Shown here one piece after another: positions 29,869-53,709 of a stretch of DNA of 64,000 nucleotides. Every line of letters begins with the position of its first letter. Position 1 is the stretch's first letter. Position numbers and translations under genes: made by a program. Below the pieces are notes generated by a model. It had not been told where the DNA came from. It did no database searches and saw nothing but the letters and a program-made list of their open reading frames with translations. This DNA comes from Thermoplasmata archaeon (lineage in GTDB: Archaea > Thermoplasmatota > Thermoplasmata > Halarchaeoplasmatales > Halarchaeoplasmataceae). Location of the stretch: the NCBI GenBank assembly GCA_003552585.1, contig PUNK01000010.1, positions 43,909 through 107,908 on the forward strand, in the 5' to 3' direction.

Positions 29869-30351
29869 ATGAAAACGATACTTTACTCGGAATTGATAAG
29901 ACGCACCGTTAACATACCCCATGAAAGGACTAAAGGAAAACTTGTAGAGATTGTTGCTAGAAGGGGAAAAAAGTACTGGCCCATAGAAGAGATAATGATA
30001 GAATCCGGACTTATAGATAAAAAGGCAGATTTCTATATGATGACCGATCTGGAGGAATTAAAGGAGGAAGGGACCTTGGCCCTAAATACCCATGTATCAG
30101 GAAGGGAAAGACCTGCAAAAAAAGAAAATATTTTTCTATCAAAATTGATCAAGAGCAAGGTGGTCGATAATGAGGAAGAAGAATACGGAAGAGTTTATGA
30201 CTTTGAGATCATACAAGTCAACGAAGATCAGTGGATAGTATGGAAAATATTAGCGGATCCCGCAGGTCTCTCACCCCGAAAAAAGCGATTGAGAATCCCG
30301 ACCGTAGAAGTCCAAAAATTATCTTCAGATAAAGTGTTCGTGAATATGTAA
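29869..30351 (+). CDS. Tandem PRC-barrel domain protein
   Basis: Two PRC-like repeats: LYSELIRRTV...GKLVEIV and FLSKLIKSKVVDNE...GRVYDFEI...IP..EV. Confidence 0.7.
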   Translation: MKTILYSELIRRTVNIPHERTKGKLVEIVARRGKKYWPIEEIMIESGLIDKKADFYMMTDLEELKEEGTLALNTHVSGRERPAKKENIFLSKLIKSKVVDNEEEEYGRVYDFEIIQVNEDQWIVWKILADPAGLSPRKKRLRIPTVEVQKLSSDKVFVNM

Positions 30352-30366
30352 TAGAGAGGAATCGAT

Positions 30367-30591
30367 ATGGAATATGTTTTTATATTTATAGTCGTCCTGG
30401 TAATCCTTATAGTACTAACAGTACTTTTAATTTATCAAGTTTTTAAAACATGGAGAATAGGAAAGCAAGAAGTTGTGAAAGATGACGAAGTAAGCATGAA
30501 AATTGCAGATATCAAAAAGAGAATAAATTTGGTAAGACGAACAAAGCCCCGCCACGTAATGGTTTCAACCAACGATGAGAGGAGAATATGA
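30367..30591 (+). CDS. Small single-pass membrane protein
   Basis: 74 aa; N-terminal TM helix and basic tail; ATGA overlap with the next gene. Confidence 0.7.
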   Translation: MEYVFIFIVVLVILIVLTVLLIYQVFKTWRIGKQEVVKDDEVSMKIADIKKRINLVRRTKPRHVMVSTNDERRI

Positions 30592-30911
30592 GAAACAAGG
30601 AACATCTTGAATTAAAAGTTGAAAAAAGTTCGATTGGTATCGGGGGAAGAGCTAGAGTCCGCACCTCAGTTTTTGATGAACTTGGACTGTCTGATGGAGA
30701 TCCCTTGACTGTTGCATTTGAGGATAAAGGAATAGTCGTTGAAGGATATTCTGATGACCTAATCAAAGAAGGATACATTCGCCTCAGGAGAAAAGATATC
30801 GAGAGGTTGGACATCTACGAAGACGATATAGTAAAGATATTGCCTTACACGAAGACAGGAAAGAAAGTAAGCAAGATCATCAAAAGAAAGATGAAAAAAC
30901 TAAAAAGATGA
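30588..30911 (+). CDS. Stand-alone double-psi beta-barrel protein (Cdc48/VAT N-domain-like)
   Basis: Duplicated DPBB motif ARVRTSVFDELGLSDGDPLTV / IRLRRKDIERLDIYEDDIVKI; basic C-terminal tail; no ATPase domain. Confidence 0.72.
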   Translation: MRNKEHLELKVEKSSIGIGGRARVRTSVFDELGLSDGDPLTVAFEDKGIVVEGYSDDLIKEGYIRLRRKDIERLDIYEDDIVKILPYTKTGKKVSKIIKRKMKKLKR

Positions 30912-31287: not shown

Positions 31288-32052
31288 TCAACTCTTTTCA
31301 AGATCCTCGCCTCCAAAAAAAATGGTCTGGACATCTGAATAGATATCTTCCATACCAAACCATTCTGCTGAAGAAACGGGTATCAGTCTTTCGCTGAACG
31401 CAATCTGTTGTAGGCCACGGACCATTTCAATGCTTAAGGTATTTCTAAGAGATCCGGTATCCAATAACTCGGTTTCAAGGAGTTCGAAGTCCTGAGACCA
31501 CTCGCAAATCGTATCTATCTCTTCGTCAGACAAAAGGTCTGACTTCCCTAATAAGGGAATATGGGGGACGTGAAATCTAAAGTATATAGTTGCCGAAAGA
31601 AGCATCAAAGAAACAAAACCAGAGGGTTGTTTAGACAGGATAGGATCAAAGATAAAAGAGAAGGCTGAAATTTCTCTTCCTAGGGCACGAACTAATTCTC
31701 TACTTGACTGTCTAAAGCTGAAAAGTTCCATCTGACCAGGAGTGTCGATCAAAAAATAATCGCAATCATAAGTGTCCATCACGTCACGGACTTCTGAAGC
31801 GTTCATCGCGACCATGTCTGCACAAGCTATCTGAGCACCATTAGGGCCCAATCCCATCTCTTTCATTACTTCTCTTAGTGAAACCCAGTCCATGATGTCT
31901 ATATCTGGCTCGTAAGGCAGATTCTCAGCACCTGGGTCCAAGTTGATAGTAACAGGCCGATAACCCTGCACCTCCATCCACTCTTTAAACTCCTTTGTAA
32001 GGGTTGTTTTACCAGAACCCGCTGTTCCAACGAGGAAAAGATTTACTGACAT
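31288..32052 (-). CDS. GPN-loop GTPase
   Basis: GTAGSGKT, NLDPG, LGPNG, DTPGQME. ATG 32052 preferred to TTG 32073. Confidence 0.93.
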   Translation of the reverse strand: MSVNLFLVGTAGSGKTTLTKEFKEWMEVQGYRPVTINLDPGAENLPYEPDIDIMDWVSLREVMKEMGLGPNGAQIACADMVAMNASEVRDVMDTYDCDYFLIDTPGQMELFSFRQSSRELVRALGREISAFSFIFDPILSKQPSGFVSLMLLSATIYFRFHVPHIPLLGKSDLLSDEEIDTICEWSQDFELLETELLDTGSLRNTLSIEMVRGLQQIAFSERLIPVSSAEWFGMEDIYSDVQTIFFGGEDLEKS

Positions 32053-32090
32053 GGTTCCAGCTATCCGTTCCAAATTGATAAAATTTGTGC

Positions 32091-32633
32091 CTATCCTGGG
32101 AGCGTTGCCATCAGAACTGTGATCTCCTCGTCACAGTCCTCATCCTTAAGTTCTTCAAGTTTTTTTCTAGTTTGACTGAATATCTCTTCCAATCGGTCCA
32201 TGGCCTCATCCGTCATCGGTACTTTCTCATAACTTACCCATCCGACTTCTCGATCTATAGTCTTTTTTTTCTGAATATACCTGATTCCCCTGTTAACCAT
32301 ACCTTTTATCGTTCCCAAGGACGCTAGTTTGTAATTCTTTTTCTCCTCTAATGTAAGATCCTCCCAAACAGATGACGAATCAAGCCATTTTTCATCAACA
32401 GCATAGTATCGCTTGACAAGGTTTCTACACATCTCCTCTCTGCAAACGTGTATTAGACCCGCATCTAACAATTTGTGCACATGATGTGATACGGTTTGAG
32501 GGGTCAATCCCATCTCTTCAGCCAGATCTGTAATTGTCCTTTCTCCCTCCAACAGTAGGGCCATCACCTGCAAACGTGAAGGGTTTGAAAGTATTTTTAT
32601 CTGATTCACGGTCGGTTTTAATTCATCAGGCAT
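32091..32633 (-). CDS. ArsR-family winged-helix transcription regulator
   Basis: LSNPSRLQVMALL...TITDLAEEMGLTPQTVSHHVHKLLDAGLI...KRYY; SD AAGGTG. Confidence 0.88.
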   Translation of the reverse strand: MPDELKPTVNQIKILSNPSRLQVMALLLEGERTITDLAEEMGLTPQTVSHHVHKLLDAGLIHVCREEMCRNLVKRYYAVDEKWLDSSSVWEDLTLEEKKNYKLASLGTIKGMVNRGIRYIQKKKTIDREVGWVSYEKVPMTDEAMDRLEEIFSQTRKKLEELKDEDCDEEITVLMATLPG

Positions 32634-32642
32634 GTGTTCACC

Positions 32643-32741
32643 TTAAGATATCATCTTAACGTACAAGGCACATCGAAATATTTAAATATTACCCATGCAT
32701 AGTATACACTAAGATGGCATCGTAACGTGACGTCATCTAAA
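32643..32741. promoter_or_regulatory. Bidirectional promoter with repeated operator boxes
   Basis: Palindromic TATA AATATTTAAATATT (32677-32690). It is flanked by TAAGATATCATCTTAAC (32644-32660) and TAAGATGGCATCGTAAC (32710-32726), 14/17 identical, plus a degenerate third copy GTGACGTCATCTAAA (32727-32741). Confidence 0.65.
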
Positions 32742-32762
32742 TACCGTAACGGAGGCATAAGT

Positions 32763-32840
32763 ATGAAAAGAAGAGATCAGAACCCTAAGAACAACCGCTG
32801 GATTATGGATGTAATGCAAAATCAGGGCACCATCCAATAA
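32763..32840 (+). CDS. 25-aa micropeptide 1 (MKRRDQNPKNNRWIMDVMQNQGTIQ)
   Basis: SD GGAGG at 32751-32755; downstream of TATA; similar to micropeptide 2. Confidence 0.6.
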   Translation: MKRRDQNPKNNRWIMDVMQNQGTIQ

Positions 32841-32874
32841 AAAGAACCCCTAAATCAGATAGGAGGTGAAAAAA

Positions 32875-32952
32875 ATGAAACCGAGGTATAGAAATCCCAA
32901 AAGCGATCCGCTGGTACAGAAGCTGATCAACTTCGAAAACGCCACCAAGTGA
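32875..32952 (+). CDS. 25-aa micropeptide 2 (MKPRYRNPKSDPLVQKLINFENATK)
   Basis: Full SD AGGAGGTGA at 32861-32869; same length and MKxRxxNPK start as micropeptide 1. Confidence 0.65.
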   Translation: MKPRYRNPKSDPLVQKLINFENATK

Positions 32953-33177
32953 TGATATCTGGCGGCATTGATATCTGTACCAACGAAACACCTTTCTAAT
33001 ATTTAATTTTGACATCCTCAGAACTCATAGAGCAAATCATCAGCTTTTAGCTTCATAGTAAATTTTTCATCATCGGATGGTAAAGTGATATGAAAAGACA
33101 ACAATAAATCAATTTTGGAAGGACTCCGAAACCCAAAAATATAATTCCTGCATATCTTATGTCGTAAAGTGATTAAG

Positions 33178-35460
33178 ATGCATCTACCCGCAGGTAAAAC
33201 AATAAGAACAGAATTCGGAGGAAAAGGTATTTTAGAAGAGATGGTTAATGAATTCTCTAGTTCAAAAATTAAAGGATATATAAAGTCTAGTCTTACAAAA
33301 AAGGATGGAAGGTCTGAGGGATATCTGTTTTTGGATAAAGATGATATTGTAGCATCTATACATCATGAAGATAGGACAGTTATGGGTAAAAAAGCGGTTA
33401 GAGAAATAGCAAGAGACAGCTTGGACGAAGACTGTCTTTTAGAACTTCACTCCTATTCGTACAAATCCTCTTCTATATCACTACAACATGTTTTAAAAGG
33501 TAAGGACGACTGGATAGTAGAAAAAGATATTAACATATCCCTAGAGATTGAAAGAGTCCAAAGGATGGGAAAGAAAAGGAGTATAAAGGCTGAAAAAAAT
33601 GTTAAAAAAATTAAACGCCGTGAACCAGAAATAGAGGGTATAGAACTTGACGATCTTGAAGAGGTTCCGAAGGATATACTATCTTTCCAAGATGAGGGAG
33701 ATATTATAGAAAGAGCTGAAAAAAGATTCAAAAAGATGAGGGAAGGAAAACAAAAAGAAGAGATGGAAGAACTAAGAGAAGAGCTAGAAAAAAAGAAAGA
33801 GGAAATAAAGAAAAGGGAAAAGGAGCTCAAAGAGTGGGAAGAAAAACTTTCTGATAAGGAACAGGAAGTCAAAGAGAGAGCTGACAAAGTTAGAGAGGAG
33901 ATGCAGGATTTACGAAGGATGTGGTCCGAGCTTCGGGCAGAGAGTCTGGAAGTAAATAAAGCTAGAGAAGAGCTTGAGGAAAAGCTCGGAGAACAGATGA
34001 AGAGGGAAGATGAACTATTGGAGAAGGAAAGAGAATTAAGGCGTTTCCAGGAAGAGATGGAGGAATGGGAAAACGATATAAAAGAAAGGTCCTCGAAGCT
34101 TGGATCGATGGAAGAGGAGCTCAGCAGCTGGGAGAGGGATCTAGAGAGGAAGGAAAAAAGGCTTGATGGGATGGAATTGGAAGTAGAGGACAAGGAAGAA
34201 GAGCTTTTTGATAAAGAGATGGAACTAGAGGAGAAGAAAAAAAGACTTGAAGTAAGAAAGAAGGAACTCAAAGAGAAAGAAAAAAATCAAGAAAAAGTCA
34301 AGAAAGATGTTGAAGATAGGGAAAGGGAACTCAAGCTTGAAAAGGAAGAACTGGCGGTGGAAAAAGAGTCCTTGGAGCAGAAGGAAAGAAAGCTTCAGAG
34401 GGAAAAAGAAAGGATAGAAGAATTGAAGGACGGTCTCAAGTCAGATAGAGAATCCGTGAGGAATATGAAGAAAAATCTGTTGGAAAATGAGAGGGAATTG
34501 GAAAATAAAATAGATAAGTTAGAAGAGAGGGAAGAAGATCTAAGCCATATGGAAGATGAACTGGAAGAAAGAAAATCTACACTCGACGACAAGAGGATAG
34601 AGTTGAACGAGAAGGAAATAGAGCTGACAAAAAAAGACAACGAACTCGACGAAAAGGCTGACAGAATAATGACTGCACAGGAGGATCTAGAGGACCGTGA
34701 AAGAGAATTAGAAGACAAAATAGAGGAACTCGACCGTAAAGAGGAACAGCTTAGTAAACGCAGGGAAGCTTTGAAAGATGAAAGGAAGAAAATGGAAAAG
34801 GAGATCGAGGAGAAAGAAAAAGAGCTTGAAAAGAAGATAGAAGAGAACAAGGATTTGAAAAAGAGTTTGTCTGGAAAGAAAGGGGCTCTCCAGCGAAAGG
34901 AAAACATACTAGAAGACAGGGAAAAAGAACTTGAAGAAAGAGAAGAGGATCTGAATGATCACAAAGAAGAACTGGATGATAGAGAGGCAAAGATCAAAGA
35001 AAAGGAACTTGAATTAAAGAAGGAGGGAGAATCCATCCAACAAGATAGGGAGAAGATGGAGGAGGAATTAGAAGATAGGGAAAGGTCGATCAATGATAAG
35101 GAACAGGAATTAGAAGAATTAGAAGGGGTGCTTGAGGAACGCATGTCCAAGTTCAAACAAAAGCTCTCTGACGTGGTAGAAGAAAGGGCTGAACTTGAAG
35201 AAAGAGAAGATGTGCTTGAGGAAAGAGAAAAAGAGTTGAGTGAGAACGAAGAGAGGGTTGAAAAAATATTGGACGAGCTTAACCAAAGAGAACAGGAGTT
35301 GGATTCTAAAGAGGAAGATATCTCTGAAAAAGAGGAAAAATTGGAGAAGTGGGAGGAGAAGCTTGAGGAAAGAGAGAAACAGCTTGAGGAAAAGGACAGT
35401 TTGATCTCTGAGAAGAAAAGTTCACTAGAAGAGTTGAGAAAAGGTTTAGATGAGATATGA
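33178..35460 (+). CDS. DUF2226-like N-terminal domain fused to a very long E/K/R coiled coil
   Basis: N-terminus MHLPAG...GYIK...EGYLFL..DDIVAS...LELHSY resembles archaeal DUF2226. About 570 aa of continuous LEERE-type heptads follow. Confidence 0.75.
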   Translation: MHLPAGKTIRTEFGGKGILEEMVNEFSSSKIKGYIKSSLTKKDGRSEGYLFLDKDDIVASIHHEDRTVMGKKAVREIARDSLDEDCLLELHSYSYKSSSISLQHVLKGKDDWIVEKDINISLEIERVQRMGKKRSIKAEKNVKKIKRREPEIEGIELDDLEEVPKDILSFQDEGDIIERAEKRFKKMREGKQKEEMEELREELEKKKEEIKKREKELKEWEEKLSDKEQEVKERADKVREEMQDLRRMWSELRAESLEVNKAREELEEKLGEQMKREDELLEKERELRRFQEEMEEWENDIKERSSKLGSMEEELSSWERDLERKEKRLDGMELEVEDKEEELFDKEMELEEKKKRLEVRKKELKEKEKNQEKVKKDVEDRERELKLEKEELAVEKESLEQKERKLQREKERIEELKDGLKSDRESVRNMKKNLLENERELENKIDKLEEREEDLSHMEDELEERKSTLDDKRIELNEKEIELTKKDNELDEKADRIMTAQEDLEDRERELEDKIEELDRKEEQLSKRREALKDERKKMEKEIEEKEKELEKKIEENKDLKKSLSGKKGALQRKENILEDREKELEEREEDLNDHKEELDDREAKIKEKELELKKEGESIQQDREKMEEELEDRERSINDKEQELEELEGVLEERMSKFKQKLSDVVEERAELEEREDVLEEREKELSENEERVEKILDELNQREQELDSKEEDISEKEEKLEKWEEKLEEREKQLEEKDSLISEKKSSLEELRKGLDEI

Positions 35461-53538: not shown

Positions 53539-53591
53539 ATATGGTGAAAAATGGGTCGCTGAGTGTTTCATCTAGGTTTTGATAGAGATGA

Positions 53592-53666
53592 TGGGCCCGC
53601 CGAAATTTGAATTCGGGTACCGGCGTCCCGAACGCCGAAGGATGGACCAAGCTACCCCACGGGCCC
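53592..53666 (-). tRNA. tRNA-Pro (anticodon CGG), no intron, CCA not encoded
   Basis: Reverse complement GGGCCCG TG GGGTAGCTTGGTCCATCCT T CGGCG TTCGGGA CGCCG GTAC CCGAA TTCAAAT TTCGG CGGGCCC A folds into a full cloverleaf. Confidence 0.95.
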
Positions 53667-53709
53667 AAATTATTGTTCACATGAGAAAGGCTGTTAATAA
53701 AAAGATTAC

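Follow-up and report, generated by a model that had tools for sequence, protein, structure and literature searches.

Small open reading frames divergent from an ArsR-type regulator gene in Thermoplasmata: a candidate repressor-micropeptide unit

What is encoded beside an archaeal ArsR-type regulator gene, in a gap where the list of open reading frames (ORFs) shows no long ORF? The question arises from a stretch of 64,000 nucleotides (nt) of a Thermoplasmata archaeon (contig PUNK01000010.1, positions 43,909 to 107,908, assembly GCA_003552585.1), hereafter the window. Between its regulator gene and the coiled-coil gene beyond, an earlier look at the letters alone (the sequence-only reading) had pointed out two ORFs of 25 codons with strong Shine-Dalgarno sequences (SDs). 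It had proposed that they are related micropeptide genes and the only credible targets of the divergent promoter of the regulator gene. From the comparison of related genomes, it was concluded that both small ORFs (sORF1 and sORF2) are real, conserved protein-coding micropeptide genes. It is probable that they represent the target in a local repressor-target unit of the ArsR/SmtB style. Local ArsR-type repressors that control a single adjacent target are well known as a kind of system; I know of no earlier case in which a micropeptide is the sole target and the arrangement is conserved across an archaeal class.

Two small ORFs and their relatives

The coordinates of sORF1 and sORF2 and the spacing of their SDs agree with the sequence-only reading (Table 1). 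In the mechanical ORF list, the two sORFs start at upstream GTGs (32727 and 32866), but ATG 32763 and ATG 32875 are preferred here because the alignment with relatives backs these ATGs. The two encoded peptides are identical at M1, K2, R4, N7, P8, and K9, that is, at 6 of 25 positions, all among the N-terminal nine. The shared features that had been claimed hold for this N-terminal part, but relatives keep neither the amphipathic segment nor the T at position 23-24. It is also true that the gap has no credible long ORF, but it does hold a C/D box small RNA (sRNA) on the minus strand (~33013-33079), which had been missed. A third ORF of 15 amino acids (aa) that had been suggested at 32952-32999 was dropped; it has no SD, spans one arm of a helix and a gene-end motif (see below), and is not conserved in relatives. 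A minus-strand ORF of 70 aa (32803-33015) and the other alternative frames were dropped as well, none of them being open across more than 20 of 36 sORF intervals.

Is the sORF conserved in relatives? The source assembly is a metagenome-assembled genome (MAG) of 1.84 Mb, which is 91% complete. An orthologue of the regulator is present in 35 of 44 genomes of the same Thermoplasmata family, and 32 distinct upstream regions from this family were used after the removal of duplicates. An ORF of 23-39 aa was found at the matching place in all of the 32 distinct loci. The sORF starts ~130-160 nt from the start codon of the regulator gene and ~80 nt past the TATA box, and the alignment of the 32 loci revealed that the SD and the start codon are kept at a fixed spacing. 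The SDs in relatives are GGAGG, AGGTGG, or AGGTGA; the SD filter caught 29 of the 32 sORFs, and the remaining three, from one genus, have a weaker GTGAT. It is sORF1 that occupies the position of the sORF in all 32 relatives' loci, and its product aligns with the relatives' peptides, including a Trp residue at position 13. The tandem second copy, sORF2, has a Leu residue in place of this conserved Trp. Two tandem copies were found in 4 of the 32 loci (the window, L009, L013, and L033). At the DNA level, the intergenic sequence has matches in 19 of 24 other genomes of the family and in none of 16 genomes of other families. Its conservation peaks over the promoter and over the C/D box sRNA, not over the sORFs.

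The pattern of substitutions is that of coding sequences. In every group, the differences are in excess at the third codon position (26/21/90, 69/71/145, 39/26/66, 157/131/197, 471/383/583, and 9/3/14 differences per codon position). The ratio of nonsynonymous to synonymous substitution rates (dN/dS, by the Nei-Gojobori method, NG86) is 0.00-0.43 in 40 of 42 within-group pairs, and the other two pairs are saturated. The peptides of loci L010 and L056 are identical despite a proportion of synonymous differences (pS) of 0.28. The check that had been proposed together with the two ORFs, a search for conserved short ORFs upstream of orthologous ArsR genes, found such ORFs in 32 of 32 loci with synonymous-biased substitutions. 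The conservation and the dN/dS values bear out the view that the two ORFs are related and genuine small coding genes.

What kind of peptides do these genes encode? The conserved features of the peptide alignment (35 sequences) are Met1, a basic start of the pattern M-x-[RK]-[RK], and a Trp residue at position 13 or 14; the Trp residue is present in 32 of the 35, with the products of the window's sORF2, L058, and L019 as the exceptions. The longer forms terminate in ..AEEPPxP(KGKRSxF). The window peptides are hydrophilic and basic, with no stretch of transmembrane length. Neither of them has a Cys or a His residue, and Cys occurs in 2 of the 35 aligned peptides. A ribosomally synthesized and post-translationally modified peptide (RiPP) or a metallothionein-type peptide has no support, as the window peptides are Cys-free. 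The other roles offered in the sequence-only reading, namely signalling precursors, anti-repressor ligands, and binders of ribosomes or nucleic acids, are speculative. A type I toxin was also considered and rejected; it would have to be a hydrophobic, membrane-spanning peptide, whereas the window peptides are hydrophilic and basic.

Database searches did not connect these peptides with a described protein family. None of the 35 peptides matches a Pfam entry at E up to 1, and among the same 35 no credible NCBIfam match was found (a single noise entry, E 0.093, for one peptide). A profile search against 1.84 billion representative proteins gave nine matches at E up to 0.001, six of which are 32- or 39-aa members of the sORF family itself and three of which are repeat proteins. 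A look-alike search of the Protein Atlas with the 39-aa peptide gave no usable match. No further sORF copy was found in the assembly: the profile of the peptide alignment (A1) matches only the window pair among 53,581 stop-to-stop frames of 18-90 aa, and the recovery of this pair is by construction since the two peptides belong to A1. In an AlphaFold2 (AF2) model of the peptide, residues 2-5 and 13-16 are predicted as an N-terminal beta-hairpin and residues 19-25 as a short helix.

Archaeal sORF proteins of up to 70 aa, largely unannotated, have been catalogued by ribosome profiling (Ribo-seq) and mass spectrometry in Methanosarcina mazei and Haloferax volcanii. Such proteins are the same class of object as the products of the window sORFs. 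The window family differs from them in that it belongs to another lineage and is defined by comparative genomics and linkage to a regulator, while theirs are defined by expression (PMC11456600, PMC10117724). The available portions of the literature on ArsR-linked archaeal small proteins, PH1932, and archaeal small proteins contain nothing describing the window peptide family.

The shared promoter and the regulator

The sORFs and the regulator gene diverge from one promoter region. In the alignment of the 32 regions, a transcription factor B recognition element (BRE) and TATA box with the consensus CGAAATATTTAAATATTACCCC is nearly invariant (window 32674-32694). On either side of the TATA element, an inverted repeat, T(T/A)AGA-N4-ATCTAAACG, is conserved, and the centre of each repeat lies ~26-35 nt from the centre of the TATA element. 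According to the general geometry of archaeal promoters, transcription would begin at that distance from the TATA box, in either direction. From this geometry, I infer that both transcription start sites (TSSs) lie over the operator-like repeats. In the window, site 1 is located between the TATA box and the regulator start codon, over the minus-strand TSS thus placed at ~32658, and site 2 covers the corresponding plus-strand TSS of the sORF transcript. The TATA box would fire both ways, because its centre is ~26 nt away from the centre of either operator-like site and there is an SD-led gene on each side.

Are such operator-like sites also found elsewhere in the genome? A weight matrix was made from 61 sites in 31 relatives' loci, with the window locus excluded. 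Site 1 is the best match in the 1.84-Mb assembly (27.1 bits) and site 2 is the second best (21.9 bits). Ranks three and four (19.1 and 16.3 bits) fall inside long ORFs, and no further promoter-located match was found in the 91%-complete assembly. Since the two local sites top the operator ranking of the assembly, the regulator would be local, and the sORF transcript would be its sole target outside its own operon. The operator architecture, its uniqueness in the genome, and the joint presence and absence of the sORF and the regulator (see below) all support the earlier view that, the regulator's own operon aside, the divergent promoter has no credible target but the sORFs.

The regulator gene and the GPN-loop GTPase gene are assumed to be co-transcribed on the basis of their adjacency; the position of the GPN gene directly downstream of the regulator gene was taken from the coordinates. 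The GPN gene is present on the regulator's locus in 32 of 33 loci of the window family and in none of 10 loci of other families.

The only families recognised by Pfam in the regulator are helix-turn-helix (HTH) families (HTH_5, 9.5e-14; HTH_20, 5.6e-13; both above the cut-offs). Its best sequence match in the PDB is PH1932 (1uly, E 1.9e-13), which covers the winged HTH (wHTH) domain only, and Phr (2p4w) was matched at 5.5e-5. An AF2 model was made of the orthologue from locus L022, which is 68% identical to the window regulator; the mean predicted local distance difference test score (pLDDT) is 80. In this model, the wHTH domain is followed by helices at residues 95-122 and 142-160. The full-length Foldseek matches of the model include 4g6q, 1uly/2cwe, and 2p4w, and ArsR/SmtB structures are among the fold matches. 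The regulator is a member of the PH1932/Phr-like class, with a wHTH domain and long C-terminal helices. In ArsR/SmtB regulators, the motifs for metal or redox sensing are Cys pairs or an alpha5 His/Asp/Glu site. The Cys residues of the window regulator (HVCREEMC) are Ser, Thr, or Glu in most orthologues. A HHHVH stretch is conserved in the recognition helix, and columns 122-125 and 134-136 in the C-terminal part of the orthologue alignment are variable.

Do the regulator and the sORF occur together? Six syntenic loci in three genera (L011, L012, L077, L078, L079, and L080) lack the regulator, both operators, and the sORF together. The same six loci retain the GPN gene (minus strand), the C/D box sRNA (minus strand), and the coiled-coil gene (plus strand). 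The peptide profile found a match in none of five regulator-less genomes and in four of five regulator-bearing controls.

Is the arrangement limited to the family of the window? Full-length orthologues of the regulator, with 31-43% identity, were found in four other Thermoplasmata families. An SD-led divergent ORF of 22-52 aa is present at the matching relative position in 9 of 10 loci of these families, and several of the loci also have similar operator-like sites on both sides of the TATA box. The peptides of the other families have no Trp residue, and the neighbours besides the regulator gene and the sORF are unrelated there. One of the four families was sampled more deeply (regulator in 24 of 47 genomes). 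In this second family, an sORF of 20-31 aa, for example MKKNLGQPNFVIVNGNIFFLRA, was found in 21 of the 21 loci with a complete upstream region, and the proportion of nonsynonymous differences (pN) is lower than pS in 59 of 59 pairs. The second-family peptides begin with a basic segment, and their C-terminal half is hydrophobic. In the family of L072-L074 and L081-L095, there is a side observation at L072: a gene for an Rce1-like (CPBP) intramembrane protease (Pfam 4e-20) lies on the same strand beyond the sORF. The sORF's own T-rich terminator sits before this Rce1-like gene.

How the unit may work

Where would the sORF transcript end? In relatives, a motif AAA(A)CC(C)TTT(CC) with a T-run comes after the sORF. 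In the whole assembly, 66 of 527 matches of this motif fall in the 2.2% of the sequence that is noncoding and lies within 120 nt downstream of a long ORF on the same strand. The motif was found on 37 of 838 long ORFs in the sense orientation versus 14 in the antisense orientation, at a median of 14 nt past the stop codon. It may be a lineage-specific terminator-like signal. Because this gene-end motif closes it, the sORF or the sORF pair would form a stand-alone transcription unit, and both sORFs probably share one RNA of ~0.3 kb (~32711 to ~33000-33010). Across the assembly, the motif often has a hairpin just upstream.

A potential helix joins codons 12-15, around the Trp codon, to the 3′ untranslated region (UTR) ahead of the gene-end motif. 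The cognate arm pairs have a mean of -18.4 kcal/mol, versus -12.3 (sd 4.1) for arms of non-cognate loci and -11.3 (sd 3.5) for shuffled arms. The three bases of the Trp codon are paired in 26, 28, and 29 of the 32 loci, and the flanking positions show several pair types. In all 32 loci, the end of the 3′ arm is at most 2 nt from the A-run. For a subgroup of 11 sequences, RNAalifold predicted an 8-bp helix with 3 of 8 pairs compensatory. In this 11-sequence alignment, 95.5% of the cells are paired versus 83.8% in shuffles (0 of 500 reach the observed value), and 25-53% are paired with the partner slid. I read this stem as a terminator-associated or 3′-end-stabilising structure.

How would the parts work together? 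A regulator dimer would bind the two inverted-repeat operators that flank the shared palindromic TATA box and overlap both TSSs. It would repress its own operon (the regulator gene and the GPN-loop GTPase gene) and the micropeptide transcript together, and an inducing signal would free both from repression at once. By analogy, I take the micropeptide to be the effector of the response; it would stay in the cell and exert its effect by binding to a larger partner. One repressor for itself and one adjacent target is proposed here because the usual logic of ArsR/SmtB local repressors fits the data.

In ArsR/SmtB local units such as SmtB-SmtA, a winged-helix repressor gene is divergent from an adjacent target gene, with inverted-repeat operators in the shared promoter region. 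The window locus likewise has an ArsR-family gene divergent from a small target, inverted repeats in the shared promoter that are specific to this locus, and a regulator that appears to be dedicated to it. In contrast to SmtB-SmtA, the target is a Cys-free basic peptide of 23-39 aa rather than a Cys-rich metallothionein or a transporter. The Cys residues of the regulator are not conserved, and the regulator has a PH1932/Phr-like long helical C-terminal extension. The host is an archaeon, and one palindromic TATA box would serve both directions. The combination of a wHTH domain and long C-terminal helices is shared with Phr, the heat-shock regulator of Pyrococcus furiosus (2p4w), and with PH1932 (1uly/2cwe), whereas the sequence similarity to them is limited to the wHTH domain. 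Phr represses through operators overlapping the TSS. Unlike with Phr, there is no operator match at other promoters of the 91%-complete assembly and no sign of a heat-shock regulon of hsp20 and AAA+ ATPase genes. To my knowledge, no micropeptide target has been described for Phr or PH1932. A small-protein gene under a nearby dedicated metal or stress regulator, with the small protein as the effector, would also be comparable to MntS, a bacterial small protein controlled by the repressor MntR, although MntS has no sequence relationship to the window peptides.

Several points weigh against the proposed repressor-micropeptide unit or parts of it. The genus of the window is represented by a single genome, and selection on the window's own two copies was inferred from sister genera because there is no second genome of the genus. 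Having lost the conserved Trp residue, sORF2 could be decaying. The peptide model is only moderately confident (pLDDT 66.7). Operators elsewhere are possible, the assembly being 91% complete, and the peptide profile overlooked one of its five positive controls. The distant locus L069 has no sORF. A look for RNA sequencing runs over 32600-33200 turned up none. Across families, position and architecture are conserved but peptide sequence is not; the peptides of the window family and of the second family have no similarity detectable by hhalign (probability 0.35%). As for the helix, the compensatory changes in the 11-sequence subgroup represent few independent events, and RNAalifold gave no pairs on all 28 sequences, a null that I ascribe to the misalignment of the 3′ arms by MAFFT. 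The fold of the whole transcript is unremarkable (z = -1.05).

Could the micropeptide bind its own regulator instead? It might be an anti-repressor or a co-repressor, or a cue that is exported and sensed again, as in Rgg/SHP or SinI/SinR. Rgg/SHP and ComR/ComS of Gram-positive bacteria are regulator-peptide pairs, and the window locus resembles them in that a peptide gene of 20-40 codons is divergent from a neighbouring regulator gene and, judging from the operator position, apparently controlled by it. The peptides are likewise lineage-specific, fast-evolving, and variable in copy number. A feedback pair would account for the strict joint presence or absence of the regulator and the sORF, for the sORF as the sole non-self target, and for the persistence of the pairing over five families while all the other neighbours change. 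Divergence is much faster in the peptides (mean column identity of 34%) than in the regulator (78%), as expected of lineage-specific ligand-receptor pairs. With their basic N-terminus and hydrophobic C-terminal half, the second-family peptides are reminiscent of SHP-type pheromones. Nevertheless, I consider a feedback pair unlikely. The regulator is ArsR-type, with only a wHTH domain and predicted long helices, and has no tetratricopeptide repeat (TPR) or other recognised peptide-binding domain. The peptides resemble no part of the regulator (hhalign of A1 against the regulator alignment A2, probability 0.1%), so SinI-like mimicry of a regulator segment was dropped. No export signal is evident in the window peptides, which are hydrophilic, and no genes for secretion, processing, or import are conserved beside the module, nor is there a linked transporter or protease. 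Co-folding of a dimer of the regulator and the 39-aa L022 peptide, each entered as an alignment, scored 0.01, a value that favours neither binding nor its absence. The signalling-loop form of this idea seems improbable to me. In it, the peptide would be produced solely upon release of the repressor and would bind back to the regulator at its C-terminal helical domain, possibly after export as a population cue. If it were true, the peptides would diverge fast and by lineage because ligand and receptor specificities co-evolve, as in Rgg/SHP or arbitrium. I know of no genetically encoded pair of a peptide and a regulator that serves communication in Archaea, although no literature search was directed at this point.

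The helix between codons 12-15 and the 3′ UTR, being conserved and covarying and followed by a conserved motif, raises two other possibilities. The transcript might be mainly a structured regulatory or dual-function RNA whose helix and 3′ tail are functional, the ORF being secondary or incidental. This is very improbable in view of the strong coding signature in every group and in the second family, and of the SD and start codon at a conserved fixed spacing. The 3′ motif recurs after other genes and is not specific to this RNA, the whole-transcript fold is the unremarkable one given above, and on the plus strand of the sORF region there is no Rfam match at E up to 10, barring two presumed-noise matches (E 2.1 and 4.2). 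Alternatively, the sORF might encode a leader peptide in an attenuator: its translation would set the read-through to a gene further along, and the Trp codon within the stem would be the sensor. The 5′ arm does lie inside the ORF at the conserved Trp codon, and the stem abuts the terminator-like motif. However, no downstream gene on the same strand is conserved; in the family of the window, the gene-end motif is followed by the convergent C/D box sRNA, past which lies either the coiled-coil gene, which has a conserved promoter to itself, or, in other genera, what by eye looks like the end of a convergent gene. The other families have unrelated neighbours and peptides without Trp, and an attenuator is extremely improbable. 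Short ORFs are common, and alternative frames over these intervals are open in up to 20 of 36, so might the sORFs be chance ORFs in intergenic DNA with no gene at all? The sequence-only reading had called a chance origin unlikely, and I give it hardly any credence: in 32 of 32 loci there is an ORF of 23-39 aa that has an SD and keeps its distance to the regulator gene, the substitutions show a coding pattern and purifying selection, and the ORF is lost jointly with the regulator.

Neighbouring features and wider meaning

Table 1. Features of the sORF locus and other features of the window (positions of the window).
Feature	Position	Strand	Remark
GPN-loop GTPase gene	31288-32073	minus	directly downstream of the regulator gene
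ArsR-type winged-helix regulator gene, 180 aa	32091-32633	minus	ORF list, Pfam, PDB sequence matches
Operator-like site 1, TTAAGAT-ATC-ATCTTAA then CG	32643-32661		perfect 7-3-7 inverted repeat
BRE/TATA element CGAAATATTTAAATATTACCC, palindromic core TATTTAAATA	32674-32694		nearly invariant in 32 loci
Operator-like site 2, CTAAGATGGCATCGTAACG	32709-32727		over inferred plus-strand TSS (~32711) of the sORF transcript
sORF1 SD, GGAGG	32751-32755	plus	7 nt before ATG
sORF1, 25 codons + TAA	ATG 32763-32840	plus	encodes MKRRDQNPKNNRWIMDVMQNQGTIQ
sORF2 SD, GGAGGTGA	32860-32867	plus	7 nt before ATG
sORF2, 25 codons + TGA	ATG 32875-32952	plus	encodes MKPRYRNPKSDPLVQKLINFENATK; tandem second copy
Helix 5′ arm, TGGTACAG	32912-32919	plus	inside sORF2, codons 13-15; pairs with 32975-32982
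Helix 3′ arm, CTGTACCA	32975-32982	plus	3′ UTR, directly before the gene-end motif
Gene-end (terminator-like) motif GAAACACCTTTC + T-rich tract	32985-33010	plus	inferred 3′ end of the sORF transcript
C/D box sRNA	~33013-33079	minus	C AUGAUGA, C′ UGAUGA, D CUGA; 5-bp terminal stem CAUCC/GGAUG
Coiled-coil gene, 763 aa	listed from 33169, likely ATG 33178	plus	ORF list
eL15-Euryarchaeota ribosomal protein leader RF03144	48123-48171	minus	37.7 bits, above gathering score
tRNA-Pro (CGG)	53590-53667	minus	sole tRNA in the window

Beyond the sORF transcript and convergent to it, the C/D box sRNA is conserved in most loci of the family. Its match to the Rfam family sR41 reaches 35.4 bits (E 2e-6) and so falls short of the gathering score (54). 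The target of its D guide is nearly invariant, AACTCATAGGG (AACTCATAGAG in the window); the rRNA is not assembled in the MAG and was hence outside the target comparison. A separate promoter-like element is conserved ahead of the coiled-coil gene, CCCAAAAATATAATTCCT (33137-33178 region), ~25-30 nt ahead of a GTGAT-type SD and ATG 33178, and its listed GTG start at 33169 is probably not used. Upstream of the GPN gene, there are two small stand-alone genes (30588-30911 and 29869-30351); one has a weak CDC48_N-like match (8.3e-7, below the cut-off) and one a PRC-barrel-like match (3.3e-4, just below the cut-off).

No part of archaeal genomes is charted as poorly as the small proteins, and very few of them have a known regulator or function. 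The sORF family described here is genetically well defined, with a dedicated regulator, candidate operators, a promoter, a transcript end, and strict joint presence and absence with the regulator. The minimum gene length of Prodigal is 90 nt; a search that starts from a conserved regulator gene next door can reveal peptide genes below the length limits of gene callers. The locus also suggests that a stem at the 3′ end of a transcript can draw its 5′ arm from coding sequence. The regulator-plus-sORF arrangement persists over at least five Thermoplasmata families, in which some genomes, including ones of the second family, are closed single contigs, possibly of cultured organisms. The module gives a way into what the orphan PH1932-like ArsR-type regulators of Archaea sense and into the role of one 25-aa peptide.

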